From contig JAJYPH010000002.1 in the NCBI GenBank assembly GCA_021795575.1, positions 1 through 62,508 on the forward strand: 62,508 nucleotides of DNA, written 5' to 3'. The number at the start of each line of letters is the position of its first letter. The stretch's first letter is position 1. Below the pieces are notes generated by a model, which ran no database searches, had not been told where the DNA came from, and saw only the letters and a list, made by a program, of their open reading frames with translations. Positions 3,004-58,364 of the stretch are shown here, in pieces. The position numbers were made by a program, and so were the translations under genes. This DNA comes from Bacillota bacterium. Lineage in GTDB: Bacteria; Bacillota; Sulfobacillia; Sulfobacillales; JAIMBI01.

Positions 3004-3789
3004 GTGCGCGTTCTGATGTTGGGCGATGTGGTGGGCAAACCCGGGCGACGCCTGGTGCGTGCGGCCGTGCCGCGCCTCAGGCGGGAGCGGAACCTGGACC
3101 TGGTCGTCGTCAACGCCGAAAATGCGGCGGGGGGCAACGGCCTCACGCATGAGGTGGCCGATGAGCTGTTGTCATCGGGAATAGACGTACTGACGTCCGG
3201 CAACCACATCTTTGACAAAGACAACGTGCTCACGTTTATCGACGACCTGCCCGTCCTGCTGAGGCCCCTGAACTATCCCCCGGGCACCCCGGGACACGGC
3301 GCCGTCGTCGTGGAGGCCCGTGATGGCACCCGCGTGGGCATTATCAACGTGTCGGGGCGGGCGTTCCTGCCCCAATCCTACGATGACCCGTTTCGAGCCC
3401 TCGATGCCACCTTGGACGCACTGCCCGCCGCCGAGGCCATCCTGGTGGACGTTCATGCCGAAACCACGTCGGAGAAAGTGGCGCTGGGCTGGTACCTGGA
3501 CGGCCGGGTGTCGCTGGTGGTCGGCACGCACACCCACGTGCAAACCGCCGACGAGTGGATCCTGCCCCAGGGCACCGGCTACCTGAGTGACCTGGGCATG
3601 TGTGGGCCGTATCGGTCGGTCATCGGGGTGCGGACCGAGCTGGTCTTGCAAAAGTTTTTGACTCAGCGGCCGGTGCGCTTTGAGACGGCCACCGGGCCCG
3701 CCCAGCTCTGCGGTTTGATTGCCACCATCGAGGCGGGGCGCACGGTGGCGTTGGAGCGCGTTTACGAGCGGGAGCCGCTGTCCACGTAG
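3004..3789 (+). CDS. ymdB: YmdB-type metallophosphoesterase (TIGR00282-like, 2',3'-cyclic-nucleotide phosphodiesterase)
   Basis: The N-terminus MRVLMLGDVVGKPGR...VVVNAENAAGGNGLT and the later GTHTHVQTAD motif are characteristic. Confidence 0.9.
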   Translation: MRVLMLGDVVGKPGRRLVRAAVPRLRRERNLDLVVVNAENAAGGNGLTHEVADELLSSGIDVLTSGNHIFDKDNVLTFIDDLPVLLRPLNYPPGTPGHGAVVVEARDGTRVGIINVSGRAFLPQSYDDPFRALDATLDALPAAEAILVDVHAETTSEKVALGWYLDGRVSLVVGTHTHVQTADEWILPQGTGYLSDLGMCGPYRSVIGVRTELVLQKFLTQRPVRFETATGPAQLCGLIATIEAGRTVALERVYEREPLST

Positions 3790-42555: not shown

Positions 42556-44547
42556 TCAGGGGCCCAAGGCGACGCCCGGCGCCGTGTCCATGCCATCCGC
42601 ATCGGCCGCGTGCCTGAGCTCGAGGTCGGGAATCAGGAACCCGAGCAGCAGCGCGGCGGCGGCTAATAGCGCCGCCACCCCCAGCACGTTCTTGACGGCC
42701 GCCGTGATCGACACCGTGATGGCGCGCACCACTTCATTGGCCGTGCGGTGGCCGGCCGCGAGAATACCGCGGCGGGCCGCGGGAATCGCCGCGGCTTCTG
42801 CCCGCCGAATGATGCCGGGCTCGGAGGTCGTCAGTCCGTGCTGAACCTGAGCGAGCGCGGCAGCGCGTGCAGTGGCGGTGGTGGGAGGATGCGCCACCAG
42901 CGCCTTTAACGGCGTCGGCAGCGTGGAGTGGGCGATGGCTGCCTGGGCGTCAGCACTGCCTGCGACGGCCGCCCGCACCAGCGTAAGCTCCCGGGCCACG
43001 TCGGCATGCACCTGGGCGGGAATGCCTCCGGGAGGCAGCTCGGCCAGCTGCTTGGCGGTGACGCCCGGCGTATGGGCCAGGGTCCGGTACGCGGAGCGGC
43101 TGCCCTCGAGCGCCCGGGTGGCCTCACGCGCTACCGTATGGAACTTCGCCAGGATGGCCGCGCGGGTCTGCGTCTGGTCCGCGAGCGAGTCGGAACTGGC
43201 TGAGAACTGGGATGACGCCACCGCCACGTTTTTGGGCAGATGGGCGGGAATCTGCGTAGAGAGTGTACTGGCCAGCACCACTCCCATGAGGGCCGCCCCG
43301 ATGGCGGACCCCATCTGCCGAAAGAACATGTTGCCGCTGGACGCAACCCCCATCTGGCGCAGGGGCACGACGTTCTGGACGGCCAAAACGTACAGGGAGA
43401 ACCCCGGTCCGATGCCGACCCCCAACAGACCCAGGTACAGCAGCAGGGTGGACAGCGAGAGGGTGGGCGTCAGAATCACATGCAGCACCACAAACAGGGC
43501 CGTTGCCCACGCGCTCCCGACGAGCAGCAGCACCTTGACGCGGCCCAGCCGCTGAGCCAGGAGCCCCCCGGACACACTGCCCACGACCACGCCGCCCACG
43601 AGCGGTGTGAGCGTGAGGCCGGACGCCAGCGGAGAAATGTTCTTGGCCATGACCAGATAAAACGGGACGAACAGCACCGAGCCCAAAAACGCTGCGCCGA
43701 AGCACAGGGACGCAAGCCCGGTCCAGGTAAACGTGGGGATGCGCAGGAGCGACATATCGAACAGTGCCGCCGCCGACCGCCGCTCGATGAGATAAAACGC
43801 CCCCAGACCCACTAGGGCGACACCAAAGAGGCCCACCACCTCCGGCGAGGACCACGCATAGGTCGACCCGCCCCACGACAGTGCAAGGACCAGCGCCACG
43901 CACCACACCACCATGGTGGCGAACCCGGGCACATCAAACCGCTGGCGGCGAGGGCTGGTGAGCCGAGGCATGTGGGCGATGAGCACGTAGAGCGCCAGAA
44001 TCCCAAAGGGCATGTTGACGTAAAACACGTATCGCCACGAGAAGCTGTCCGTCAACAGCCCGCCCAAATACGGCCCCACCACGCTCGCAATGCCAAACAC
44101 GGCGCCAAACAACCCCTGAATCCGCCCCCGCTCGCGCGGGGGAAACATGAGGCCGATGGTGGTCAGCGCCACCGCGAAGATGGCCCCGCCGCCCAAGCCC
44201 TGAATGCCGCGAAATAGAATGAGCTGGTACATGCTGTGCGAGAGCCCGGACAGGGCCGACCCGACCAGAAACACGATGGCGGCCGCAATCAGGACGTACT
44301 TTGGTGACACGATGTCCGCCATGCGGCCGGCCACCGGCAGCGCGATCGTGGAGGCCAGCAGGAAGCTGGTGGCCACCCACGCATAAAGATTCGTGTGCCC
44401 CAGCTGCTCCACGATGCGCGGCAGGGCGGTCGCCACGATGGTTTGGTCCAGGGCCGACAGGAAGATGCACAGAAACACCCCGATGAGCGCCAGCCGGCGT
44501 TCGCCGGGCCCAATGGTAAATCCGGCGGGAGCGGGTGATGGGGTCAT
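42556..44547 (-). CDS. MFS DHA2-family (EmrB/QacA-type, 14-TMS) efflux transporter with long C-terminal extension
   Basis: FLSALDQTIVATALPRI, GRMADIVSPK and RGIQGLGGG motifs. Begins 1 nt after the tetR stop. Confidence 0.88.
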   Translation of the reverse strand: MTPSPAPAGFTIGPGERRLALIGVFLCIFLSALDQTIVATALPRIVEQLGHTNLYAWVATSFLLASTIALPVAGRMADIVSPKYVLIAAAIVFLVGSALSGLSHSMYQLILFRGIQGLGGGAIFAVALTTIGLMFPPRERGRIQGLFGAVFGIASVVGPYLGGLLTDSFSWRYVFYVNMPFGILALYVLIAHMPRLTSPRRQRFDVPGFATMVVWCVALVLALSWGGSTYAWSSPEVVGLFGVALVGLGAFYLIERRSAAALFDMSLLRIPTFTWTGLASLCFGAAFLGSVLFVPFYLVMAKNISPLASGLTLTPLVGGVVVGSVSGGLLAQRLGRVKVLLLVGSAWATALFVVLHVILTPTLSLSTLLLYLGLLGVGIGPGFSLYVLAVQNVVPLRQMGVASSGNMFFRQMGSAIGAALMGVVLASTLSTQIPAHLPKNVAVASSQFSASSDSLADQTQTRAAILAKFHTVAREATRALEGSRSAYRTLAHTPGVTAKQLAELPPGGIPAQVHADVARELTLVRAAVAGSADAQAAIAHSTLPTPLKALVAHPPTTATARAAALAQVQHGLTTSEPGIIRRAEAAAIPAARRGILAAGHRTANEVVRAITVSITAAVKNVLGVAALLAAAALLLGFLIPDLELRHAADADGMDTAPGVALGP

Positions 44548-45178: not shown

Positions 45179-45196
45179 GGTACGTCCTCCCATGCA

Positions 45197-45213
45197 TGCA
45201 AGTGTTGCTTGCA
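45197..45213. promoter_or_regulatory. Inverted repeat TGCAAG-N5-CTTGCA, probable TetR operator
   Basis: 6-bp perfect arms located between the predicted -10 and the tetR SD. Confidence 0.5.
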
Positions 45214-45214
45214 C

Positions 45215-45242
45215 AGCTTAGCACGGCGCCGGGCGGTGTCAA
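45215..45242 (-). promoter_or_regulatory. Sigma-A-type promoter TTGACA-N16-TAAGCT for tetR-MFS
   Basis: The minus strand reads CCCTTGACACCGCCCGGCGCCGTGCTAAGCTGTGCAAG. Confidence 0.5.
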
Positions 45243-45613
45243 GGGCAGAGGGCCTCGCGTGGGAAAAAGACGACGCAGCCCCCGCCGGGTCTCGACGGCG
45301 TGGGGTCGGACTCGACCAGCGGGGCTGGGGCAAGAAGCCGCGCGACGACATTCCGCTGGCCATTCGGCGCAAGAACGGTCGGACGCTGGACGACCTGGGG
45401 ACCGAGCTGCCCACGCTGTATGGATGGCGCTTCGACTCCGAGTCCGCCCTCTATGCCGCGTTGAGCCGGCGCGAGGATGCCAGGTACCAGCGCGCGGCCT
45501 TCATGGCGGCCGCGCGGCGCGAGCATGATGAAGAGGAACCGTACACGCGATTGATTCGAGGCACGCGGGAGGCGTTGCGGCCAACCCGCAAGCGACGAAC
45601 AGTGAAGGACTGA
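45236..45613 (+). CDS. Hypothetical protein (start uncertain)
   Basis: High GC3 and natural composition in the distal two-thirds (…LDDLGTELPTLYGWRFDSESALYAALSRREDARYQRAAF…). Its stop lies 6 nt before the next gene. Confidence 0.35.
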   Translation: MSRAEGLAWEKDDAAPAGSRRRGVGLDQRGWGKKPRDDIPLAIRRKNGRTLDDLGTELPTLYGWRFDSESALYAALSRREDARYQRAAFMAAARREHDEEEPYTRLIRGTREALRPTRKRRTVKD

Positions 45614-45619
45614 GGGATC

Positions 45620-45979
45620 ATGGGGACCGGAGGCGGAGGTTTCGAGGAAAACATGGGCAAGTTCGGGTGGGACGGATATTGGGGGGCGGCCTACGTGGCT
45701 CAGTCGGGCGACGGGTGGTCCACAATCTCGGAGTATTTTTATGGCTCGACGGCGACGGACTGCTGGGAAGGCCTCCAGTCCAACAACGGCGGCGGAACAC
45801 TGGACGTGGGGCAGGTGGTGGGTCTACCGGCATTTGTCGGGCTTGACTTAGGCGCCGGGGGGATCCAGTACGACCTGATTTGCGCCAACGTGCCCGCACA
45901 AAAGGACCTGGGAGTTCTCGCGGCGCCCTCGGGGTTTTCGTCGCAAGCTATCCCCGCATGCGGATTCACGGCGGACTAG
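45620..45979 (+). CDS. Small protein with a LysM-like segment
   Basis: YVAQSGDGWSTISEYFYGSTATDCWEGLQSNNGGGTLDVGQVVGLP follows the LysM pattern (GDxxxxIxxxYxG...N...LxxGQxxxxP). Confidence 0.5.
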   Translation: MGTGGGGFEENMGKFGWDGYWGAAYVAQSGDGWSTISEYFYGSTATDCWEGLQSNNGGGTLDVGQVVGLPAFVGLDLGAGGIQYDLICANVPAQKDLGVLAAPSGFSSQAIPACGFTAD

Positions 45980-46464
45980 GGGACCCCAGGGCAAGTTTCA
46001 GGGGTGGCGGGAAGGGCGCATCCCCACAGCGTGTTGAAGGGGCCCAAGACACTCGAGTACCACGACGAGGCGCTGGCAGGGCTGGTTAGGACCACCGGAT
46101 CCTGACCAGTCGGGGAAACGACGGCGGCGCTCACCACAAAATAGTATGCCTGGGACTGCGGAGACCACCGGACCGGCGGCCGCCCCGATGCTACCCACGT
46201 GGCTCGGACGGACGCCGGCTCGTAGGACAGGACCGCTTCCTCTTGCCATAGAAGGCTCCACGCCGGCTTGGCGGTGATGAATTGCCAGTCAGGAGAGATG
46301 GGCCGACGCGGACCCGAACGCCGAAGCGCAGTCGCACGCTTGACCCTAGCATTAGCGGGCGGCGTCGTGGCCAGAGCCGGCCGGGGCATCGTCAGCAGGT
46401 AGGCCGCCGCTGCGGCCACGATCAAGGCCCCGAGTGCTTGAACGCCGATTCGCGCGAGTTTCAC
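45976..46464 (-). CDS. Membrane-anchored hypothetical protein, paralogue A
   Basis: GTG start after GGGGGA gives VKLARIGVQALGALIVAAAAAYLLTMPR.... The N-terminus and upstream DNA are homologous to the gene at 50511-50945. Confidence 0.6.
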   Translation of the reverse strand: MKLARIGVQALGALIVAAAAAYLLTMPRPALATTPPANARVKRATALRRSGPRRPISPDWQFITAKPAWSLLWQEEAVLSYEPASVRATWVASGRPPVRWSPQSQAYYFVVSAAVVSPTGQDPVVLTSPASASSWYSSVLGPFNTLWGCALPATPETCPGVP

Positions 46465-46507
46465 GTTCGATCCCCCGGCCCTAGCATAACGCGCAGGGAC
46501 CCCCGCA
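46381..46507. repeat. Direct repeat copy 1 (promoter plus 5' end of paralogue A)
   Basis: Aligns with 50862-50989 at roughly 70-75 percent identity by eye. Perfect cores are CCGGGGCATCGTCAGCAG (18 nt) and CGCGCGAGTTTCAC (14 nt). Confidence 0.8.
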
Positions 46508-46545
46508 CGTCCAGGCAAAAGAAATCCCGCAGATGGGTTGTGAGC

Positions 46546-46575
46546 GCGACTCCGCGGGGTGTATCGCGGAGTCGC
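46546..46575. promoter_or_regulatory. Perfect 11-bp inverted repeat (GCGACTCCGCG-N8-CGCGGAGTCGC)
   Basis: Lies in the divergent intergenic region, followed by an AT-rich patch (46588-46620) containing TCTTATC. Confidence 0.6.
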
Positions 46576-46687
46576 CTACTGCTCCTGAGTAACATAATAT
46601 CTCTTATCGGACATTACTCCGGATGGGAGGGAGGCTGCAGACCAGGCACAGAGGAACGGCAGCTACCACTACTAGGAGGTCCTGCCG

Positions 46688-46951
46688 TTGAGTACACCAT
46701 ACCTGGTGGATGATCCACCTGTCAACCCCCTTTCTCCGGCCAACGCCATTGAGATCCTTCGTGGTCGCCATTATGTGGAAGAGGCCTACCCCGAGGCGCG
46801 CGGCGCGCACCTGGACGCCGCCATTACATTCCTGGAACATTGGGTGTCCACGGAAGCCCCGCAGCGGGTCCACCTGGCCGAGCCGGTGCACGTCTGGAGC
46901 CGTCGCACGGGCTCCTGCCGCCCCGCCCTTGCCAAGTCCACCAGCGCATGG
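46688..46951 (+). CDS. Hypothetical protein, first gene of the Rep-proximal cluster (3' end unresolved)
   Basis: TTG start 8 nt after AGGAGG. The first roughly 70 codons look coding (MSTPYLVDDPPVNPLSPANAIEILRGRHYVEEAYPEARGAHLDAAITFLEHW...). The frame has no stop until 47632. Confidence 0.4.
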
Positions 46952-47097
46952 GGACGGACGCGGTCAAGCTCGATCCCGGTGAAGGCGACGAGGGTCCTGT
47001 GTGGACCCGCCTTCCCGGCGTGCCCGCCGGCACACGCGCCGATGCCCACGAGGCCTACCTCTGGCACCGCCCCGAGTCCTGCGGGGTGGAGTCATGA
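46948..47097 (+). CDS. Small hypothetical protein (49 aa)
   Basis: MGTDAVKLDPGEGDEGPVWTRLPGVPAGTRADAHEAYLWHRPESCGVES. Its TGA overlaps the next ATG (ATGA). Confidence 0.4.
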   Translation: MGTDAVKLDPGEGDEGPVWTRLPGVPAGTRADAHEAYLWHRPESCGVES

Positions 47098-47384
47098 ACC
47101 GCGGCGGGGCGCCGGAACACTGGCCGGCCGACCCCCCAGATCCGAAGGCCGTGCACTGGCACATTTTCGCGCTGGATGCCTCCTGCGCCCCTTGGGAGGG
47201 TCGCCTGATGTTGTGCGCACAAGATCTCGAGCGAGCGGTTGCGCACGTCCACTGCATGTCCGACTCGGCTCCCGAGGCCCTTACCGGCGTCGTGTTCTGG
47301 CGCGTGGGCGGCCTCTGGGATGCATGCCTCGCGGCGGACGAACACCTCACGCATCCGCTCACGTGGTCGGAGGTGCTGCCATGA
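47094..47384 (+). CDS. Small HWH-motif protein 1 (96 aa)
   Basis: SD GGGGTGGAG. Contains ...PKAVHWHIFALDASCAPWEGRLMLC.... ATGA overlaps occur at both ends. Confidence 0.55.
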   Translation: MNRGGAPEHWPADPPDPKAVHWHIFALDASCAPWEGRLMLCAQDLERAVAHVHCMSDSAPEALTGVVFWRVGGLWDACLAADEHLTHPLTWSEVLP

Positions 47385-47632
47385 CCGGCCGCTTCCCGTG
47401 GGGGACGCTTGGCGAGGCCGAGCGCCCGCCGGTGCACTGGCACGTTATGGCCATCGATGAAAATGGCGCCGGGGAGGAAGACCGCGTACTCGCCTGCCTC
47501 CACCATTTCCCGCCGCGCGCTTTCGTCCTATGGGTCGCACGCGGGCTTCGACCAGGCGAATTCGTCGCGGTGTGGGAAGAGCCGGGATATCGCGAGGGCT
47601 GCCTGAGCCGGGGGGCGCTGCTATGTCGATAG
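47381..47632 (+). CDS. Small HWH-motif protein 2 (83 aa)
   Basis: Contains ...RPPVHWHVMAIDENGAGEEDRVLAC..., paralogous to the preceding ORF. 10-nt overlap with the Rep start. Confidence 0.55.
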   Translation: MTGRFPWGTLGEAERPPVHWHVMAIDENGAGEEDRVLACLHHFPPRAFVLWVARGLRPGEFVAVWEEPGYREGCLSRGALLCR

Positions 47633-48951
47633 CGCAGGACCTCCATTGGCACGTCCATATCACGTGGCGGCCGCCGGGTCAGGTCGCGACGGGCCAAGTG
47701 GTCGGGTGCGTTTCGGACATCGGCGCGGGCGGCGAGTATGCCGCCGACATAGCCGCCGCTAGCGATATCCTGGCCTACGTGGACGGCATCACCCTCCAGC
47801 GGCAGCCCGGCTGTCGGCGGCCTCATCTTTTCCGCCTGGTGGCTCCGATGATCCGCCGTCCGTACCGCCCGACCCCCCTCCAAGCGTACGCGCTGGCCAT
47901 TGCGGCGAGCGCGCGCGCGCAGGAGGTGGCCGCCCGCCGCCTGGCGACCGCGAAGGACCGCGCCTGCGCCGAAGCGGCGATCGCGGCGGCGCGGGCGGCG
48001 GATCGCGCCGCCCGGATGGCCGCCGGCCTCCCCTGCTTTGGCCTTGAATACGGGAATAGAAACATTTGCGGCCGACCGCGCCAGACAAGGGTTTGCGGGC
48101 ACATGGCCGAACCCGTGATCGGGGCGCCCAGCGCGGCCGTCGCCCGCCCCCTGTTCGGTGACGGCTACCACAACCGCGAGCGGTGGGGGGCAGAGATCGC
48201 CGCGAACTTGCGCGGGGCGACCGCGACCACCTGGATGCGTCGGATGGGCGACCGGATGGCTCGCTGCCGGTCGTGGGTCGTCGAGTCCCAAGGGGCCGTG
48301 GAATTGACCGAAGCTTGCCGCTCTTCCCTATGTCCCCAGGGCCGGCGCGCGCGCGGGCAGATGTGGGCGGCGCGCTTGACGCCGTGGCTGGAGCGCAACG
48401 AGGAGGAGGGATTGTCGCTCGACGGCTCGGGGCGCATCTGGCGGGATATGGACTCGGAATGGCGCGCCGCGCTCGGCTACGCGGCGGCGGCCCGCGACAC
48501 CGCCTTCACCAAGCTGCAACGACTGGACCGGCAAGACCAGCGCGGCCCGACATTGCGCTATTGGCCGCTGTTTCTCACTCTGACGCTGCGTAACGTCCCG
48601 CGACTCCAGGAGCGGGACGGTGACGGAAACGTGACCTGGAACGTGCTTGTGGACCACTTCGGAGCCAGTTGGCGGACAATGCGCGAGACGGCCCGGCGGC
48701 ACCCCGACAGTGGCGCCGGGCGACTGTGGGGGCACATCGTCGGCGGCGTCAAGGCCCTGGAAATTACGTGGAACGAGCGCGCGCAGACCTGGCACCCCCA
48801 TGCGCACGTGCTGGTATTGGCGGACGTGTCCTACATCAGCGGGCGCGAGCTGGCAGAGCTGTGGGAGCACTACGCCGATGCCTATATCGTGGACGTGCGG
48901 GCGGTGGACGGGCACCGTGAAGGAGGGACAGACCTCCGGCAGCGTGCCTAG
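47623..48951 (+). CDS. Rolling-circle replication initiator (Rep_1/pC194 family), apparently disrupted before the catalytic Tyr motif
   Basis: Motif I is PLFLTLTLRNV. The HUH motif is TWHPHAHVLVLADVSYIS..ELAELW...IVDVRAV. The frame stops about 10 codons after VDVRAV, where the ExxKYxxK motif is expected. Confidence 0.75.
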   Translation: MSIAQDLHWHVHITWRPPGQVATGQVVGCVSDIGAGGEYAADIAAASDILAYVDGITLQRQPGCRRPHLFRLVAPMIRRPYRPTPLQAYALAIAASARAQEVAARRLATAKDRACAEAAIAAARAADRAARMAAGLPCFGLEYGNRNICGRPRQTRVCGHMAEPVIGAPSAAVARPLFGDGYHNRERWGAEIAANLRGATATTWMRRMGDRMARCRSWVVESQGAVELTEACRSSLCPQGRRARGQMWAARLTPWLERNEEEGLSLDGSGRIWRDMDSEWRAALGYAAAARDTAFTKLQRLDRQDQRGPTLRYWPLFLTLTLRNVPRLQERDGDGNVTWNVLVDHFGASWRTMRETARRHPDSGAGRLWGHIVGGVKALEITWNERAQTWHPHAHVLVLADVSYISGRELAELWEHYADAYIVDVRAVDGHREGGTDLRQRA

Positions 48952-49007
48952 CGCCACGCCGTTCAACTGGGCGCGGTACCCGGGACCGGTGGTGTTGAGC
49001 TCGGGGG

Positions 49008-50088
49008 TGAAGGCATGACCGGGTGCAGGCCCTGGACGGCAAGAGCGCCCCCCCGCCGTTCACGCCGTAATCACCGAGACGTTCGCCACCCTCCAGGCCC
49101 GGTTGGGGGTGGCGGGCGCCTGCCGGGCCCTGGGCCAACCACGGTCGACCTACTACGCGCGGCGGCATCCGCGGCGGGTCGCGGGGCCGCGTCCCCGACC
49201 CACGCCGCGCACGGCCTTGTCGGCCGCCGAACGCGCCGCCATCTTGGCGGCGTTGCACAGCGAGCGCTTCGTCGATGCCCGTCCCGCGACCGTGTGGGCC
49301 ACGCTGTTAGATGAAGGCGTCTACCACGCGTCCTCGTCGACCTTCTACCGGCGGTTGCGCGCCGCCGGCGAAGTCCGCGACCGCCGGGCCCAGGCCACGC
49401 ACCCGCCCCGCAAGAAGCCGGAGCTCCTGGCCACGGGCCCCAACCCGGGGTGGTCGTGGGACATCACCTATCTCCCGGGGCCCGTGAAGGGCCAGTACTA
49501 CCGGCTCTATGTGATTCGGGACATCTTCAGCCGCGCCGTGGTGGGGTGGCTCGTGGCCCCGACCGAGGCCAAGTGGATGGCCGCCGCGCTCATCCGCGCC
49601 ACCGTGCGACGCCACGGCGTCGCGCGCGACACCTTGACCTGGCACGCCGATAACGGGGCCGCGATGGTGTCCCCGCCCGTCGCCGCCCTCTTGACGGAGC
49701 TCGGCGTGACGAAGAGCCACTCCCGGCCCCATACCTCCAACGACAACCCGTATTCCGAGGCCCCGTTCAAGACCCTCACGTATCGGCCCGACTTCCCGGA
49801 TCGCTTCCCCAGTCTCGCGGCGGCCCGCCGGTGGTTGCGGCGGTTTTTGCACTGGTACCACACGGAGCACCGGCACAGCGGCCTGGGGTGGCTGACGCCC
49901 GCGGTCGTCCATCGGGGCGAGGGGCCGGCGGTGCAGCGGCAACGCGCCGCGGTCCTGGCGGCGGCCTACGCCCGCCACCCGGAACGGTACGCGGCCGGGC
50001 CGCCGCAGCCGCCGGCCCTACCTGACCGCGTGGCGATCAACCCGCCGGAGGATCCCCCGTAACCGGGAGCGTGAATTTCTTGCTTTCA
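49008..50088 (+). mobile_element. Candidate insertion sequence carrying the rve transposase (boundaries tentative)
   Basis: The termini TGAAGGCATGA (49008-49018) and the reverse complement of 50078-50088 (TGAAAGCAAGA) match at 9 of 11 positions and begin with TG. I saw no flanking target duplication. Confidence 0.35.
49103..50062 (+). CDS. DDE transposase with rve (integrase core) domain, IS3-family OrfB-like
   Basis: HTH-like ACRALGQPRSTYYARR. Catalytic contexts WSWDITYL, LTWHADNGAAM and SNDNPYSEAPFKTL. The frame is open from 49019, and no OrfA-type ORF lies upstream. Confidence 0.85.
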   Translation: MGVAGACRALGQPRSTYYARRHPRRVAGPRPRPTPRTALSAAERAAILAALHSERFVDARPATVWATLLDEGVYHASSSTFYRRLRAAGEVRDRRAQATHPPRKKPELLATGPNPGWSWDITYLPGPVKGQYYRLYVIRDIFSRAVVGWLVAPTEAKWMAAALIRATVRRHGVARDTLTWHADNGAAMVSPPVAALLTELGVTKSHSRPHTSNDNPYSEAPFKTLTYRPDFPDRFPSLAAARRWLRRFLHWYHTEHRHSGLGWLTPAVVHRGEGPAVQRQRAAVLAAAYARHPERYAAGPPQPPALPDRVAINPPEDPP

Positions 50089-50289
50089 TCCGCCCACAGC
50101 GGCTTGACACCTACCGCATGGAGCAACAACACCGACCCCGCCGCGTACGGGCTACTCCGGTACTTGGAGCTCACCGCGGAGCGCTACCGGACGCTGGTGA
50201 ACCCCGCATATGTGGGAGAGTCCGCTGGATGGCGCAAGACGCTAGCGGCCACGGGCCACCAGGTGGCGAAGGGGGCGCACCATGGGTGA
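50071..50289 (+). CDS. Hypothetical protein (72 aa), possibly a displaced remnant of the Rep C-terminus
   Basis: High GC3. Reads ...DPAAYGLLRYLELTAERYRTLVNPAYVGESAGWRKTL.... Overlaps the next small ORF (ATGGGTGA). Confidence 0.35.
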   Translation: MNFLLSSAHSGLTPTAWSNNTDPAAYGLLRYLELTAERYRTLVNPAYVGESAGWRKTLAATGHQVAKGAHHG

Positions 50290-50446
50290 AATTCTGAACA
50301 GCGGCATGATGTGGCGGGGCTACAACACCGCGGACCCCACGAATGACGACGTGACGCTGACGGCCGCCACGGCTAGTACGGTCCAGTTCGACCAGACGTG
50401 CAACCGCCTGATCGTCGCGAACTACTCCCCTTCCCCGTGGCGCTGA
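50282..50446 (+). CDS. Small hypothetical protein (54 aa)
   Basis: MGEILNSGMMWRGYNTADPTNDDVTLTAATASTVQFDQTCNRLIVANYSPSPWR. High GC3, followed by a terminator. It is below the 60-aa ORF track cutoff. Confidence 0.35.
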   Translation: MGEILNSGMMWRGYNTADPTNDDVTLTAATASTVQFDQTCNRLIVANYSPSPWR

Positions 50447-50450
50447 AGTT

Positions 50451-50478
50451 TGGCGGAGCGCCGCCAGGGTTTTATCTT
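50451..50478 (+). terminator. Rho-independent terminator
   Basis: TGGCGG-AGCG-CCGCCA stem-loop followed by GGGTTTTATCTT. Confidence 0.6.
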
Positions 50479-50510
50479 CATTCGCCGGGAGTCTGCGGCT
50501 TTACCACGTG

Positions 50511-50945
50511 CTAACAACCGAACTGACCGGGCTTAGGGAAACCCGTGGGCGGGATCGGGGTGAGCCACCACGACGGCCACGGCGATGTTGGCGATGGGTA
50601 TGACGCCACCGGACCACTGAGGCTAAGGTTGCCATAGGGGGGGCCGACGAAGAAATAGTACGTGGATCCGAGCCGGATAGGCGGACAGTTCGCGCCCCGC
50701 CACTCCTGTCGAAGAAACGCGGACTGACTGGACATTATCCAGCGCTCCCGTTGCCAGCCCGTGGATTGAGGCCCGGGCGGGTCCGCCCACGCTACAACGC
50801 GGGTCGCACGCGCGGGCTGGCCGGCCGCTCGGGCCGGCTGCGTCGGGTGGGCGGGGCCAGCCCGGGGCATCGTCAGCAGATACGCCGCGGCGCCGGCCAC
50901 GATCACCGCACCGAGCCCCGGGACTACCCAACGCGCGAGTTTCAC
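50511..50945 (-). CDS. Membrane-anchored hypothetical protein, paralogue B
   Basis: GTG start after GGGAGGGGG gives VKLARWVVPGLGAVIVAGAAAYLLTMPR.... Paralogue of 45976-46464. Confidence 0.6.
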   Translation of the reverse strand: MKLARWVVPGLGAVIVAGAAAYLLTMPRAGPAHPTQPARAAGQPARATRVVAWADPPGPQSTGWQRERWIMSSQSAFLRQEWRGANCPPIRLGSTYYFFVGPPYGNLSLSGPVASYPSPTSPWPSWWLTPIPPTGFPKPGQFGC

Positions 50946-50989
50946 CGCGAACCCCCTCCCGCCTAGCATAACTCGCGGGTATCCCCGCA
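50862..50989. repeat. Direct repeat copy 2 (promoter plus 5' end of paralogue B)
   Basis: See 46381-46507. The shared upstream block is CCTAGCATAAC(G/T)CGC(A/G)GG...CCCCGCA. Confidence 0.8.
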
Positions 50990-51220
50990 GATCAAGTGAA
51001 CACGCACACTCAGGTCCGACCCAACCAGTGTCGTGCGACCCGTGCTGCCAGTCCATTACATGGTGGGCTCCCGGGCTGGCCGAACGGCCCCCGTGCGCCT
51101 GAGGGAGAAGGTTGCCGCATCCGATGCGCTACAATATTTGCACAAGTCTCGGATGCTCTGGCCGCCCCACTGAGTCGGCTTCGTAGATGACAGGGGCCGC
51201 CCGGGAGGAGGGGTGTTACG

Positions 51221-52111
51221 GTGCCCGTCGCCTTGCAGCACCTGACGGTCTGGCAGTGGCTTGAGCCACCCGTGCTGGGTGTCACGATGGCTTTGGTTAG
51301 TCTGTTCGCGCTGACGGTGCATGGCCCCTGGGCTCGGCGATTCCCGGATGCCGACGGCATCAGTCGTCGGCAGTTTTTCCTGTTCGTCCTGGGTCTGGGG
51401 GTCCTGTACCTGGCGTTCGGGGGCCCGCTGGACATCTTGGGGGACGGGTATCTCTTCAGTGCGCACATGACGCAGCACCTGCTGGAGGCGTTTGTCGCGG
51501 CGCCGCTACTGCTGCTCGGCACTCCCGCCTGGCTGGTGCGTCCGGTGTATCAATGGCCGGTGGGCGGCGCGGTCCTGCGGGTCGTGACGCGCCCGCTGGC
51601 TGGCATGGCGCTTTTCATGGTGGTCATGGGGCTAACGATTTGGCCCCCCTTCTATACGTTGATGGAAGTGAATCCATGGGTGCACTTCGCCTACCACGCG
51701 GCATTGCTCATGGCGGCGCTGGCCAGCTGGTGGCCCCTGTTGAGCCCGCTCCCCGAGCTGCCGCGGCAGCACCCCGGCATGCAGATGCTGTACATCACGC
51801 TGAGCGGACTGCCGATGTTGGGGCTGTTTGCCCCGCTGGCGCTGGACACGTCGCCCTACTACAGCTACTACGCGCACACCCCGCGTCTCTTCGGCCTGAC
51901 GCAGGTGGCGGATCAGCAATTGGGCGCCGTCATCATGCTGGCGGGCGCCCATATCCCGGCCACCATGGCGTTTCTCGGGGCGTTTGCCCAGTGGGTGCGG
52001 CGAGAAAAGGTGGGCGTGATTGACCCGCCCCCCGAGCGGCCTCGTCCCGGGTATGCGACCGGTGTGGTGCCCGCGTCCGACCGGCCCGCATCGGACGCGG
52101 CCGCGGGCTGA
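51221..52111 (+). CDS. ctaG: Cytochrome c oxidase assembly factor CtaG (Bacillus caa3 type)
   Basis: Polytopic membrane protein with SAHMTQHLLE... and QQLGAVIMLAGAHIP patterns. GTG start after GGGAGGAGGGG. Confidence 0.75.
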   Translation: MPVALQHLTVWQWLEPPVLGVTMALVSLFALTVHGPWARRFPDADGISRRQFFLFVLGLGVLYLAFGGPLDILGDGYLFSAHMTQHLLEAFVAAPLLLLGTPAWLVRPVYQWPVGGAVLRVVTRPLAGMALFMVVMGLTIWPPFYTLMEVNPWVHFAYHAALLMAALASWWPLLSPLPELPRQHPGMQMLYITLSGLPMLGLFAPLALDTSPYYSYYAHTPRLFGLTQVADQQLGAVIMLAGAHIPATMAFLGAFAQWVRREKVGVIDPPPERPRPGYATGVVPASDRPASDAAAG

Positions 52112-57638: not shown

Positions 57639-57896
57639 ATGGGGCAGTTGACCATCCGTAGCGTACCCGACGATGTCGTGCACGCCCTCCGGGCCGAGGC
57701 GGGCCGCCGCCGTACCAGCCTCAACGCCGTCGTGCGTCAGGCCCTCGCCGACCATGTGGCACGACAGCGTCGCCTGATAGACCTCCAGGCCTGGTTGCCC
57801 CAGTTGGACGCCGTGCGCCACGACATTCTGGTCAGCCATGCTATGGAGGCCACCACAGACAGCACGTCTCTGATCCGGGAGGACCGATCCCGGTGA
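57639..57896 (+). CDS. FitA/VapB-like ribbon-helix-helix antitoxin
   Basis: MGQLTIRSVPDDVVHALRAEAGRRRTSLNAVVRQAL follows the RHH pattern LxIRxLPxxVxxxLRxxAxxxGRSxxAExR. Confidence 0.75.
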   Translation: MGQLTIRSVPDDVVHALRAEAGRRRTSLNAVVRQALADHVARQRRLIDLQAWLPQLDAVRHDILVSHAMEATTDSTSLIREDRSR

Positions 57897-57924
57897 GTGC
57901 GTGAGGCACGACGGCGTGCCAGCC

Positions 57925-58358
57925 ATGGTACTGGATGCATCTGCGGGGTGAAGTGGGCCCTGCCCGAGCTGCGGTCGGGCGCCGCCCGTGAATTGGCGGC
58001 CGCGTACGCGTCGGGCCGCGTCGATCTGTGGGCTCCTGACCTTTACGTGGCAGAGGTCACGAACACCGTGTGGAAAAAGTGCTACCTTCTCCACGAGCTG
58101 ACGCCGGAGGAGGCCTCCCGGGCGCTGGGCGCCTTGCTGGCCACCCTGCCCGAGCTGGCACCGTCATCGTCGTTGGCGGCTCAGGCCCTCCAGCTGGGAC
58201 TCAAGCTCGGGATCTCCACGTATGACGCCTTGTATGCAGCGCTGGCGTTGCAGGTGGGCTGCCCCTTGGTTACCGAGGACCAGCGACTGCTGGAGCGCGC
58301 CGCGCCGGTCCTGGGCCGCGTGTTTCCGCTGTCCGAGGCCGTAGCACGGATCGGGTAA
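57925..58358 (+). pseudogene. PIN-domain (VapC-like) toxin, frameshifted after codon 8
   Basis: ATG 57925 encodes MVLDASAG and then TGA. The remaining PIN body (VKWALPEL...AEVTN...STYDALY...VTEDQRL) is in the frame entered by adding one G to GGGG at 57945-57948. Confidence 0.7.
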
Positions 58359-58364
58359 GTCGCC

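Follow-up and report, generated by a model that had tools for sequence, protein, structure and literature searches.

Decayed remains of tailless, tectivirus-like temperate phages next to a dif-like site in a Bacillota chromosome

Identity of the block

The block at 45236-50996 of the window (the whole stretch of DNA analyzed here, 62,508 nts of a Bacillota genome) probably represents what decay has left of one or two tailless temperate phages of the tectivirus-like kind, with acidophilic Bacillota as hosts, for which entry by the Xer/dif route is proposed. The case for a provirus remnant is strong, and the Xer/dif route of integration is what we infer from the sequence. The remnant is of an already known kind, akin to the NO16/PM2-like dif-associated tailless phages, in a host group (acidophilic Bacillota) that differs from those precedents. 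The initial annotation had described a plasmid-like rolling-circle replicon or small ssDNA element that had integrated and was decaying. Our data support foreign, chromosomal and decaying DNA with a pC194-type (Rep_1) rolling-circle initiator, and the depth of the element equals that of the single-copy chromosome, but its relatives are tailless phages, not plasmid-like or ssDNA elements.

No capsid or ATPase gene was found in the window, so what identifies it as viral is the homology of its early/Rep region together with two short late-gene fragments. An unrelated IS later wrecked the replication gene; therefore, this piece is a dead remnant and not a new kind of element, and it cannot replicate, package or excise by itself. 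The left part of the block is the right end of one element copy (up1, p119 and mem1); after it come the dif-like site and a second copy, of which early genes, a Rep without the catalytic C-terminal part, a pair of late-gene fragments and mem2 are left. A 5'-truncated IS3 copy has taken the place of ~7 kb of the latter, from the 3' end of Rep through most of the virion module. The features are as follows.

45236-45613, plus strand: up1, a 125-aa ORF (GC3 frame signal)
45620-45979, plus strand: p119, a small secreted-looking 119-aa protein with a LysM-like motif (LysM assignment unproven)
45976-46518, minus strand: mem1, a membrane-anchored accessory gene pointing away from the dif-like site
46355-46507: direct-repeat copy 1, covering the N-terminal transmembrane coding region of mem1 and a promoter-like region
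46546-46575: perfect inverted repeat (11-bp stem, 8-nt loop) without a T-run; z = -2.3 over a 121-nt region
46587-46614, minus strand: 28-bp dif-like site (AT patch), ATGTCCGATAA (XerC arm), GAGATA (central region), TTATGTTACTC (XerD arm)
46688-47097, plus strand: early gene 1, a pseudogene with a frameshift at ~46925 relative to a 137-aa homologue in L007
47094-47384 and 47382-47632, plus strand: two small coupled early ORFs (repeat D11)
47623-48102, plus strand: homologues of the 74-aa and 79-aa early genes of L007, here fused in frame with Rep
48103-48951, plus strand: truncated Rep_1 rolling-circle initiator (Pfam match and alignment with full-length Reps)
48916-49035: filler of ~120 bp between the Rep break and the IS3-homologous repeat
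49036-50117, plus strand: multicopy IS3-family IS fragment (NCBIfam and Pfam)
50118-50289, plus strand: orf69, 3' fragment of a late (virion-module) gene, homologue of a 151-aa gene of Sulfobacillus proviruses
50282-50446, plus strand: orf54, first half of the late gene that follows, a 108-aa gene in relatives, cut after 54 codons
50449-50468, plus strand: terminator-like hairpin, then GTTTTATCTT, between the convergent late-gene fragment and mem2
50511-50969, minus strand: mem2, second membrane-anchored accessory gene, at the right end of the older element copy (50511-51056 in the comparison with mem1)
50833-50989: direct-repeat copy 2, covering the 5' and promoter region of mem2

Intact relatives and the early/Rep region

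The complete relatives are tailless proviruses of ~12-14 kb in Sulfobacillus genomes; they encode a packaging ATPase and a capsid protein of the double-jelly-roll type. Their gene order runs from a dif-like site through small early genes, the Rep_1 initiator and an HTH/zinc-ribbon regulator region to the packaging ATPase and a 41-aa membrane protein, then to the gene for the capsid protein, genes for a holin-like and a LysM protein, other late genes and, on the minus strand, a membrane-protein gene. The ATPase of metagenomic contig L007 matches tectiviral and phiKo packaging ATPases at 27-34% identity (PHROG E 1e-19), and its 316-aa protein matches the capsid-position gene of tectivirus phiG2 (28%). 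The Sulfobacillus homologue of the latter (59% identical) was modelled with a pLDDT of 88.6; the model matches PRD1 P3 (TM 0.84, E 1.6e-18), and the protein is predicted to be a PRD1 P3-type double jelly roll. No gene of the S. acidophilus or S. thermosulfidooxidans provirus, nor of the 13.5-kb contigs, gave a recombinase Pfam match.

In the window, 46598-48915 (early genes and Rep) is colinear with metagenomic contigs L007, L008 and L009, nucleotide identity being 69-77%; beyond this region such contigs run on to the packaging ATPase, the capsid protein, a holin-like protein and LysM proteins. The Rep ORF, which ends at 48951, scores 44.5 bits against Pfam Rep_1, above the gathering score of 33.2 (profile positions 49-157 of 253), and carries motif I FLTLTLRNV at 48571-48597 and the HUH motif HPHAHVLVL at 48793-48819, which bears out the pC194-type initiator first noted with these two motifs. 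Similarity to full-length relatives ends at 48915, after AVDGH (alignment with P0002 and P0003; blastn). The window Rep is cut just 5' of the catalytic-tyrosine motif (motif III, VKYATKP in relatives) and lacks this motif along with ~140 C-terminal residues; in its CPQC motif, one cysteine is replaced by glycine.

The short, tightly coupled ORFs with frame hand-offs noticed earlier are present, and at least one hand-off (~46925) turns out to be a frameshift: the homologue in L007 is an intact protein of 137 aa, which gave two tblastn matches in different frames (46688-46930, 78%; 46924-47094, 67%). Further downstream, the ORF at 47094-47384 is a partial duplicate of that at 47382-47632, the HWH motif being common to both, and the 70-aa protein of L007 matches 47429-47617 at 76% (tblastn). 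The 74-aa and 79-aa early genes of L007 match 47644-47811 (62%) and 47848-48075 (83%), respectively, in tblastn, and the 42-aa gene that sits between them in L007 is mostly deleted in the window.

Late-gene fragments, accessory genes and direct repeats

By sequence similarity, the two small ORFs to the right of the IS3 fragment are pieces of late genes that stand next to each other in this virus family. Residues 18-58 of orf69, a 69-aa ORF that as annotated begins within the IS3 end, are 54% identical to L101 13447-13569 (tblastn); orf54 is 65% identical to L101 13623-13778 and 60% to L105 12505-12639. The terminator previously placed in this region was recovered as the terminator-like hairpin at 50449-50468.

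On the left side, up1 abuts tetR, ~42 bp from the likely tetR start, which sets the left edge of the foreign block at up1. Over its last 22 aa, up1 shares 68% identity with the end of an ORF preceding a minus-strand accessory gene and a dif-like site in L008; profile searches gave no family match, and no other homologue was found in 5.8 billion proteins. up1 is probably the last plus-strand gene of an element copy, perhaps a second, newer one. The suggestion that p119 is a LysM-like protein was not confirmed: it has no Pfam match and no LysM match even at E up to 5, and its orthologue in a related MAG (L019 14-382, 43% identical) reaches 19.0 bits for LysM, below the gathering score of 20.9. 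mem1 may be a lysogenic-conversion or superinfection-exclusion gene, and mem-like minus-strand genes adjoin dif-like sites in Sulfobacillus proviruses. The mem1 and mem2 proteins are 37% identical (E 3e-9), and mem2 is 33-43% identical to mem-like genes of L019 and L101. The paralogy of these membrane-anchored genes and the direct repeats over their 5' regions (~75% identical), both reported at the outset, stand; the repeats are not att sites but the 5' ends of a phage accessory gene duplicated by successive integrations. The CCTAGCATAAC motif of repeat copy 1 also occurs in L008 and in a loose end of run X3.

These results bear directly on the plasmid reading, in which a rolling-circle plasmid of small size or an ssDNA element, integrated between tetR-MFS and ctaG, had rve, LysM and membrane genes of its own and ended in the direct repeats. 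It would account for a Rep_1 score above threshold, for the short coupled ORFs and for direct repeats at both ends, but the same early/Rep module comes with a full virion module in relatives, the rve gene belongs to a truncated multicopy IS3 and is absent from all relatives compared, repeats of such low identity are those of paralogous gene 5' ends, and the ORFs to the right of IS3 are pieces of late phage genes. Such an element is very improbable, and this reading has been largely refuted.

In the related species represented by L019, a p119-like gene, mem-like genes and a 34-bp AT patch are conserved beside ctaG. Synteny is conserved for this part of the block, and the module points to an old integration hotspot that the two species share, not to a recent insertion. 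Its position next to a CtaG of 85% identity, together with the location of mem1 and p119 on the XerD-arm side of the site, would also suit an explanation in which mem1, mem2 and p119 are fast-evolving host genes flanking the host dif, and phages gained similar genes by imprecise excision. We consider this unlikely: compared with the 85% of CtaG, the mem/p119 genes of the two species share only ~40% identity, the core-to-core provirus unit of S. acidophilus includes mem-like genes, such genes are triplicated with the sites in S. thermosulfidooxidans, and the corresponding slot in L008 is taken by another, TM2-like, minus-strand membrane gene.

The dif-like site and proposed Xer integration

Judged from its sequence, 46587-46614 is probably an att site for Xer recombination and may be the dif of the chromosome itself. 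The motif is also present in L007, L008, L019, L101, L105 and L107. With dif sequences checked against PMC3025954, the match to B. subtilis dif is 22/28 for the L019 copy, 21/28 for the right-hand copy of L101 and 18/28 for the window copy, a score also reached by 1/30 shuffles; the XerD arm of the window copy is imperfect. No second dif-like site was found in the window, the expected right junction near 51000-51100 being absent. GC skew changes sign at the site (mean +0.041 to the left and -0.012 to the right, within the window), and gene-strand bias shows no obvious flip there. The hairpin and AT-richer patch noted upstream of Rep were both recovered, as the perfect stem at 46546-46575 and a GC content of 0.60 at 46400-46800 against ~0.68-0.72 around it. 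The hairpin is possibly an operator or protein-binding site; no equivalent was seen in L008, the single relative read by eye there.

A 20-nt direct repeat (XerC arm, central region and 2 nt) marks both ends of the S. acidophilus provirus, with the XerD arm TTATGTTAACT only on the right copy, and the site of this provirus lies at 48% of CP003179. One Logan contig covers precisely the provirus, core to core, and its ends overlap by 20 nt, as expected if the reads held alternative (circular or empty) junctions. Three dif-like sites are present in S. thermosulfidooxidans, with mem-like genes triplicated alongside them, and only the outermost has TTATGTAAACT, identical to the XerD arm of B. subtilis dif. 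The combination of no integrase, dif-like repeats and a good XerD arm only in the outermost copy is the pattern of IMEX, elements that rely on host Xer recombinases for their integration.

In the proposed model, a circular phage genome would replicate by Rep-initiated rolling-circle replication. For lysogeny, host XerC/XerD (CodV/RipX) would recombine the chromosomal dif with a dif-like attP, in which the XerC arm and central region are conserved and the XerD arm is degenerate. Successive integrations would yield arrays of accessory gene plus site, the older copies of which would erode. Site orientation relative to genes is inverted between the window-type and Sulfobacillus-type families. Moreover, the DNA on the XerD-arm side (mem1, p119 and up1) looks element-derived, which the simplest IMEX model does not predict if the site is the functional dif; the IMEX fit needs a tandem array and later truncation at tetR.

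Alternatively, the 28-bp motif could be the double-strand origin (nick site) of Rep and not a Xer site, with integration/excision mediated by the HUH Rep or with origin-to-origin initiation/termination, which would also leave direct origin repeats at provirus ends. The motif does lie just upstream of the early/rep operon as the best conserved non-coding stretch (91% vs L019), has TCTTATC in common with the pC194 origin TTCTTTCTTATCTTGATAATAAGGG (PMC7072734), and coincides with contig breaks. However, the pC194-type nick core (CTTGATA) is not conserved and was not found at the window element, the Reps to which the motif is common are only ~24% identical, and the 11-6-11 layout is that of dif, with 21-22/28 matches to B. 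subtilis dif in the best copies in relatives. A bona fide XerD arm occurs only in the outermost copy by host DNA, internal copies keeping the XerC arm and central region. The nick-site model does not predict this, and we regard it as decidedly unlikely.

The IS3 fragment and the assembly junction

The IS3 OrfB (rve) frame is open at 49019-50062, and its ORF scores 62.5 bits against Pfam rve (plus rve_3) and 163.7 bits against NCBIfam NF033516, an IS3-family transposase (cut-off 160; profile positions 93-368 of 369). The rve domain reported previously is therefore real, but it is not an accessory gene of the element: the copy is 5'-truncated, with OrfA, the frameshift region and the left inverted repeat missing. 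Its right end at ~50117 was set by the divergence point of contig L016. Depth over the fragment is 3-10 times that of the flanks, and many variants occur; the fragment lies at the break where the Rep C-terminus was lost. The filler at 48916-49035 has no similarity to the relatives. Three Logan contigs stop at 49066, which fits a repeat starting ~30 nt earlier.

The left half of the block (tetR to Rep) joins the right half (to ctaG) via this IS3 copy, and other assemblies from the same population join the two halves differently. The adjacency of the block to ctaG thus varies between assemblies and runs via a multicopy IS. That the two halves are not one locus, and were joined through ~310 bp of shared IS3 3' sequence in an assembly chimera or a strain-specific rearrangement, is somewhat unlikely. 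Consistent with such a join, the stretch from tetR to Rep-IS3 is followed in L016 (sample ERZ27237159) by an IS256-type remnant, L002 and L003 enter an IS3 3' remnant (from 49808) from other DNA and continue to ctaG, the IS3 3' end in the window is a mosaic of two variants with a crossover between 49871 and 49939, and Logan contigs break at 49066 and 49855. Nevertheless, the window-type junction was found in two independent MAG contigs (L001 and L015) and one Logan contig (L005), and L019 also has the p119/mem/dif-like module directly beside ctaG; therefore, both halves belong to the same neighbourhood. A chimera would bear on the history of the parts, not on their identity.

Comparison with known systems

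The initial annotation could match the block to no described element, but double-jelly-roll proviruses with a rolling-circle Rep (PMC5894146) and tailless temperate phages tied to dif/XerCD (PMC9966536) have already been described. NO16-like tailless vibriophages have dif-like sites, with XerCD-mediated integration proposed (PMC9966536), and the rolling-circle Rep is the replication module of PM2-group elements (PMC5894146). Like the window family, NO16-like vibriophages (proposed Asemoviridae, Vinavirales) and PM2-like corticoviral proviruses are small circular lysogenising phages with double-jelly-roll capsids. Their hosts are Gammaproteobacteria, whereas the window family occurs in acidophilic Bacillota, has a Rep of the Pfam Rep_1 (pC194) type, and has an ATPase and capsid protein closest to Gram-positive tectiviruses and Thermus phage phiKo, not to PM2/NO16. 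Unlike these phages, the window copy is a dead fragment.

Gram-positive Tectiviridae (Wip1, AP50, Sato/Sole and Lysinibacillus phiG2) and phiKo have the same ATPase-small membrane protein-capsid gene order as the relatives, and likewise a packaging ATPase, a double-jelly-roll fold and a genome of 11-15 kb. Tectiviruses are linear, with terminal inverted repeats, encode a family-B DNA polymerase that works by protein priming and are maintained as linear plasmids; the window family, in contrast, has a rolling-circle Rep, no polymerase and chromosomal integration. With the pC194/pUB110-family rolling-circle plasmids (Rep_1), the window Rep has motif I and the HUH motif in common, but it lacks the catalytic tyrosine motif, and its relatives are phages and not 2-5 kb plasmids. 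As for IS3-family elements, the window OrfB (rve, DDE) scores as one of their transposases and is multicopy, the window copy being a fragment at a deletion junction. IMEX (CTXphi, VGJphi, TLCphi and the gonococcal genetic island), which have a conserved XerC arm and central region in attP and integrate and form arrays at dif (PMC5357621), resemble the window family in having no integrase and an attP with a divergent XerD arm. They are filamentous phages or islands of Proteobacteria, and their Xer dependence is experimental, whereas that of the window family is deduced.

Organization of the block between tetR and ctaG

The window (GC ~68%) was mapped from a codon-position GC plot and an ORF listing, which gave the following features around and within the foreign block between tetR and ctaG:

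42556-44547, minus strand: MFS transporter
44549 to about 45193/45214, minus strand: TetR (Pfam TetR_N)
45236-45613, plus strand: up1
45620-45979, plus strand: p119
45976-46518, minus strand: mem1
about 46519-46687: AT-richer gap
46688-48951, plus strand: run of small overlapping ORFs, the last being the Rep_1 ORF
49019-50062, plus strand: rve ORF (Pfam rve)
50071-50289 and 50282-50446, plus strand: two small ORFs (orf69 and orf54, respectively)
50511-50969, minus strand: mem2
51221-52111, plus strand: CtaG (Pfam Caa3_CtaG)

Most features that the initial annotation had listed for this block are present, namely the short, tightly coupled ORFs (the run at 46688-48951(+)), an upstream hairpin (46546-46575, with a perfect 11-bp stem), a terminator (a terminator-like hairpin at 50449-50468), and two paralogous membrane-anchored genes with repeated 5' regions (mem1 and mem2, 37% identical in protein and about 75% in their 5' nucleotides). 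The only label in that list to fail was the LysM-like protein: p119 has no Pfam match, and its orthologue in a related MAG falls slightly under the threshold. A search of 5.8 billion proteins with up1 returned only up1 itself. Neither a tRNA nor an Rfam family was found within or near the block, and integration targeted to a tRNA is therefore unsupported.

The likely TetR start and the start of up1, which lie on opposite strands, are only about 42 bp apart (window about 45193-45236), so the tetR promoter must lie inside the foreign block or at its edge. Within the small-ORF run, a (V/L)HWH(I/V)-like motif opens three successive ORFs in 47094-47632 (at 47151, 47432, and 47640); the first duplicates part of the second and has no counterpart in L007, a metagenomic contig with related early genes. 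Farther along the window, a pair consisting of a FitA-like RHH antitoxin and a PIN-domain toxin (about 57640-58360; L001 9684-10403) lies downstream of succinate dehydrogenase/fumarate reductase genes.

A truncated Rep_1 initiator of a rare clade

The assignment of the last ORF of the run to a Rep_1/pC194-type initiator holds at the level of the family (Pfam PF01446, 44.5 bits against a gathering score of 33.2), and both motifs quoted for it are present, motif I FLTLTLRNV at 48571-48597 and the HUH motif HPHAHVLVL at 48793-48819. However, the match spans only profile positions 49-157 of 253, and the gene is cut before the catalytic tyrosine. Among 5.8 billion proteins, the only other Rep clusters found were P0002 and P0003, each 430 aa long and 67-69% identical to the window Rep, and both motifs are invariant in the alignment of the three. 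The window Rep tracks these proteins exactly to ...IVDVRAVDGH (48915), diverges afterwards, and stops at 48951, while P0002 and P0003 run on past AVDGH with ...SLRELVKYATKP... (LRELVKYATKP) and then about 140 more residues. Since the window Rep ends before ...LRELVKYATKP..., the catalytic-tyrosine motif of the pC194 family (motif III) is missing. In addition, one cysteine of a conserved CPQC motif is replaced by glycine. Nucleotide homology to relatives in the Rep region stops at 48915, and the rest of the gene was not found anywhere else in the window. Rep alignment searches against GTDB genomes, IMG/VR, and JGI metagenome contigs detected no relatives, and there was no match among GenBank phages.

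P0002 and P0003 lie on metagenomic contigs (L007-L009) that run colinear with window 46598-48915 and share with it the AT patch, a 137-aa gene, 70-, 74-, and 79-aa genes, and Rep. In the window, the 137-aa gene is frameshifted at about 46925.

The initial annotation had proposed a rolling-circle replicon or small ssDNA element that integrated and is decaying. An autonomous rolling-circle plasmid or ssDNA replicon is contradicted by the truncation of Rep, the absence of the pC194 nick core, and a read depth equal to that of the chromosomal flanks in four runs; the suggested depth check for an extrachromosomal form returned chromosomal depth (e.g., 14.3 versus 14-17 in the public run X1). An actinomycete-type integrative conjugative element (RepSA + Int/Xis + FtsK-like Tra) was also considered and rejected, as Pfam searches found no integrase and no transfer gene in the block or its relatives.

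Relatives of the block are tailless tectivirus-like phages

Past Rep, L007 encodes one HTH and one zinc-ribbon protein, a P-loop ATPase, a membrane protein of 41 aa, a protein of 316 aa, and a holin-like protein, followed by further membrane proteins. The ATPase matches the PHROG "terminase large subunit" (E 1e-19) as well as the packaging ATPases from Thermus phage phiKo and four tectiviruses (Wip1, AP50, Sato, and Sole). The 316-aa protein is similar to the product of the capsid-position gene of tectivirus phiG2 and has homologs in Sulfobacillus acidophilus (TPY_3200, whose UniRef name derives from the PM2 coat protein P2) and in S. thermosulfidooxidans (one protein). An AlphaFold (AF2) model of the Sulfobacillus capsid homolog P0012, built from 14 homologs (pLDDT 88.6), has as its best match the double-jelly-roll capsid protein P3 of PRD1/PR772 (TM 0.84, E 1.6e-18). 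Based on the ATPase, capsid-position, and model matches, the family is a tailless tectivirus-like phage in which a rolling-circle Rep takes the place of the protein-primed polymerase. Swaps of the replication module are known among double-jelly-roll proviruses (PMC5894146).

Neither the double-jelly-roll capsid gene nor the FtsK/HerA-type packaging ATPase beside it is present in the window, and the ATPase was found in L007 and in four further relatives (L101, L105, L107, and L108). The window therefore holds a remnant of a member of Tectiliviricetes and not a functional member, and this remnant belongs to phages of a known type in a new host group. The virion module of the family is closest to those of phiKo and the tectiviruses of Gram-positive hosts, the initiator belongs to the pC194 family, and functionally the phages resemble temperate tailless phages of the NO16/PM2 type combined with integration of the IMEX (integrative mobile element exploiting Xer) type. 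The earlier statement that no described element could be matched does not stand. The value of the window copy is that of a pointer, as it ties small tailless phages of Sulfobacillus and its relatives, which are used in biomining, to a rare Rep_1 clade of three clusters in 5.8 billion proteins.

An apparently intact 14-kb provirus was observed in S. acidophilus DSM 10332 (L101 2510-16581, corresponding to CP003179 about 1,666,925-1,680,996), with Rep_1, ATPase, double-jelly-roll capsid, and LysM protein but no integrase; the locus is identical in strain TPY (L102). A Logan contig (L103) is identical to this provirus from core to core, suggesting that an excised circle was present in a culture data set.

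Decay of the window copy and the IS3 junction

Traces of the late region remain in the right half of the block. Residues 18-58 of orf69 share 54% identity with the C-terminal portion of the 151-aa product of a late gene of the Sulfobacillus proviruses, and orf54 shares 65% with the first half of the following late gene (108 aa). Moreover, mem2 resembles S. acidophilus minus-strand genes at the right end of the provirus and in its left flank. Given these late-gene fragments and the resemblance of mem2, the region spanning the AT patch through mem2 is arranged like a single provirus that carries two deletions. The larger one has taken about 7 kb, from the 3' end of Rep to the 5' part of the 151-aa gene, where 120 bp of filler DNA and an IS3 fragment now lie; in the smaller one, about 1.5 kb is gone between orf54 and mem2. 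The filler (48916-49035) resembles nothing in the relatives. The beginning of orf69 falls within the IS3 end, which places the cut in the 151-aa gene at 50117/50118.

The rve DDE transposase of the initial annotation is confirmed as a Pfam rve match, but not as a gene of the element itself. The IS3-family transposase profile recognizes its product, but only at positions 93-368 of 369, and upstream of rve no OrfA or left end was found. An IS3 element is defined by OrfA-OrfB with a programmed frameshift, terminal inverted repeats, and target duplication, and this copy falls short of that definition. An exact-sequence lookup of the protein returned no record. We infer the right end of the IS3 copy at 50117. 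In four mine-drainage or tailings runs, IS3 occurs at 3-10 times the depth of the flanks and in many variants, and the remaining block is at chromosomal depth. On account of its IS3 identity, truncation, multicopy depth, and absence from all relatives, rve was rejected as a DDE integrase of the element.

Contigs from one sample carry alternative junctions. L016 runs from tetR through Rep and IS3 and then, from 50117, into an IS256-type remnant, and L002 and L003 lead from other DNA into an IS3 3' remnant at 49808 and on to ctaG. The 3' end of the window IS3 is a mosaic of the L016-type and L002/L003-type variants, with the crossover between 49871 and 49939. In view of this mosaic and the alternative contigs, the window arrangement is either a recombinant of two IS3 copies or an assembly join. 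It is backed by two MAG contigs and one Logan contig, and a related species likewise has the module adjoining ctaG. In the 622 nt of L016 (1-622), a contig of the same population, that follow window 50117, the IS256-family transposase remnant is succeeded by the start of another HTH-type transposase, forming an IS-rich junction next to the IS3 copy.

Two further joints were seen in public runs. A contig of X1 passes from 46615 to 50387, skipping 3771 nt from the first base past the dif-like site (depth 5, with one side of only 26 nt). In X3, a joint from 50765 to 46413 reconnects mem2-like sequence to the N-terminal region of mem1 at depth 40, evidence of a related strain that is more abundant and has a hybrid mem gene.

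Taken by its defining features, the window copy is not a functional Rep, plasmid, phage, or IS3; it represents a fragment in the case of IS3 and a remnant in the other three cases. This dead remnant has no function of its own, and at most it could contribute two expressed membrane-protein genes and possibly a dif site.

A dif-like site in the AT patch

The best conserved non-coding stretch of the block is ...AACATAATATCTCTTATCGGAC..., which is 91% identical over 34 bp to L019, a MAG contig of a related species. On the opposite strand, the AT patch at 46587-46614 shows the 11-6-11 layout of dif, with an 11-bp XerC arm, a 6-bp central region, and an 11-bp XerD arm. The reference sequences of Bacillus subtilis and Escherichia coli dif were checked against PMC3025954.

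Table. The dif-like sites of the window and a related species compared with reference dif sequences
Window site: XerC arm ATGTCCGATAA; central region GAGATA; XerD arm TTATGTTACTC
L019 site: XerC arm ACGTCCGATAA; central region GAGATA; XerD arm TTATGTTAACT
B. subtilis dif: XerC arm ACTTCCTAGAA; central region TATATA; XerD arm TTATGTAAACT
E. coli dif: XerC arm GGTGCGCATAA; central region TGTATA; XerD arm TTATGTTAAAT

Compared with B. subtilis dif, L019 matches at 22/28 positions, the right-hand S. acidophilus copy (L101) at 21/28, and the window site at 18/28; shuffled windows reach 14-18. The motif recurs in every relative examined except L108, which has only a XerC-arm-like sequence. A scan of IMG/VR with the XerC arm and central region gave one match, located within a coding region and without a XerD arm, and it was judged to be due to chance.

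In S. acidophilus, the provirus unit of 14,052 bp has at each end a copy of a perfect 20-nt direct repeat, AACGTCCGATAAGACACATT, consisting of the XerC arm, the central region, and 2 nt. Of the two copies, the right one alone is followed by TTATGTTAACT; unrelated sequence follows the left one. S. thermosulfidooxidans (L107, ALWJ01000038) has three dif-like sites, at 3389, 4589, and 16989, with GTCCGATAA GAGAGA in common, and only the outermost one has TTATGTAAACT, identical to the XerD arm of B. subtilis dif. Its mem-like minus-strand genes are triplicated and adjoin the sites, so that the array looks like successive integrations with older copies eroded. Degenerate XerD arms were found in L008, L105, the left-hand copy of L101, and the L107 sites at 3389 and 4589.

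The same AT patch could instead be the Rep origin. It shares 7 nt (TCTTATC) with the origin of pC194, and a pC194-like nick site was considered on that ground. Its nick core differs from that of pC194, however, and an origin leaves the XerD-arm pattern at array ends unexplained; in view of this pattern and of the 11-6-11 dif layout, the nick-site assignment was dropped.

Proposed integration through Xer and dif

No recombinase Pfam domain was found in any gene of L101, L103, L105, L107, or L108, which include two proviruses in finished or draft Sulfobacillus genomes, and the sole recombinase in the window is the unrelated IS3 fragment. Elements exploiting Xer integrate at dif and form dif arrays, and their attP combines a good XerC arm and central region with a poor XerD arm (PMC5357621); NO16-like vibriophages set a precedent among tailless phages (PMC9966536). 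The good XerC arm and central region, the poor XerD arm, the lack of an integrase, and the arrays of dif sites seen here make up the signature of such elements, from which we infer the Xer step of integration. L103 coincides exactly with the S. acidophilus provirus from core to core, and its ends overlap by 20 nt, a shape that a de Bruijn graph would produce if circular or empty-site junctions coexisted with the integrated form. Accordingly, the provirus of DSM 10332, a culturable strain, may excise.

Several observations weaken the Xer reading. The window has a single site, and its XerD arm is imperfect. No second dif-like site or degenerate right junction was found near ctaG, tetR, or the IS3 edges, and 46587-46614 is unique in the window. 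The DNA on the XerD side (mem1, p119, and up1) looks phage-derived, and in L008 the site follows a C-terminus like that of up1 and a minus-strand membrane gene. This would fit only with a tandem array whose newer copy was later truncated at tetR, or with host-gene status. The orientation of the site relative to the gene map is inverted between window-type and Sulfobacillus-type phages.

Overall, we give an even chance to an undescribed lineage of tectivirus-like double-jelly-roll phages in Sulfobacillus and a high-GC relative, which would use a pC194-type Rep in place of the protein-primed polymerase, enter lysogeny at dif through host Xer recombinases without an integrase, and leave arrays of "membrane-protein gene + dif-like site" remnants at the replication terminus. 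In that case, window 46587-46614 would be the working dif of the chromosome inside a graveyard of phage remnants, and the family would provide the first Gram-positive double-jelly-roll IMEX. If Xer and dif are indeed used, integrase-free lysogeny of double-jelly-roll phages at dif would extend from Vibrio to Gram-positive acidophiles, and the family would offer a testable system for combining rolling-circle replication with Xer recombination. CTXphi integrates through a folded single-stranded attP; by analogy, integration here might perhaps proceed in the same way, as rolling-circle replication makes an ssDNA intermediate available.

Mean GC skew is +0.041 to the left of the window site and -0.012 to its right, with the cumulative maximum at 49045, a change that fits a terminus location; the S. 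acidophilus site lies at 48% of CP003179. The window probably spans the replication terminus of an uncultured Bacillota genome, and its locus would mark the probable terminus of this lineage. Over the whole window (1-62508), cumulative GC skew climbs to a plateau at about 46-58 kb and then drops. The closest GTDB relative is "Bacillota bacterium WH5.bin24" (CtaG 85% identical).

The 13.5-kb relative L108 has no standard 28-bp site; in its stead, at about 540-700, a XerC-arm-like sequence and its inverted copy lie 30 nt apart (CGTCCGATA ... TATCGGACG), and a separate palindrome contains TTATGTCAACT. These inverted arms and the palindrome could fold in single-stranded DNA, in a manner reminiscent of the CTXphi attP hairpin.
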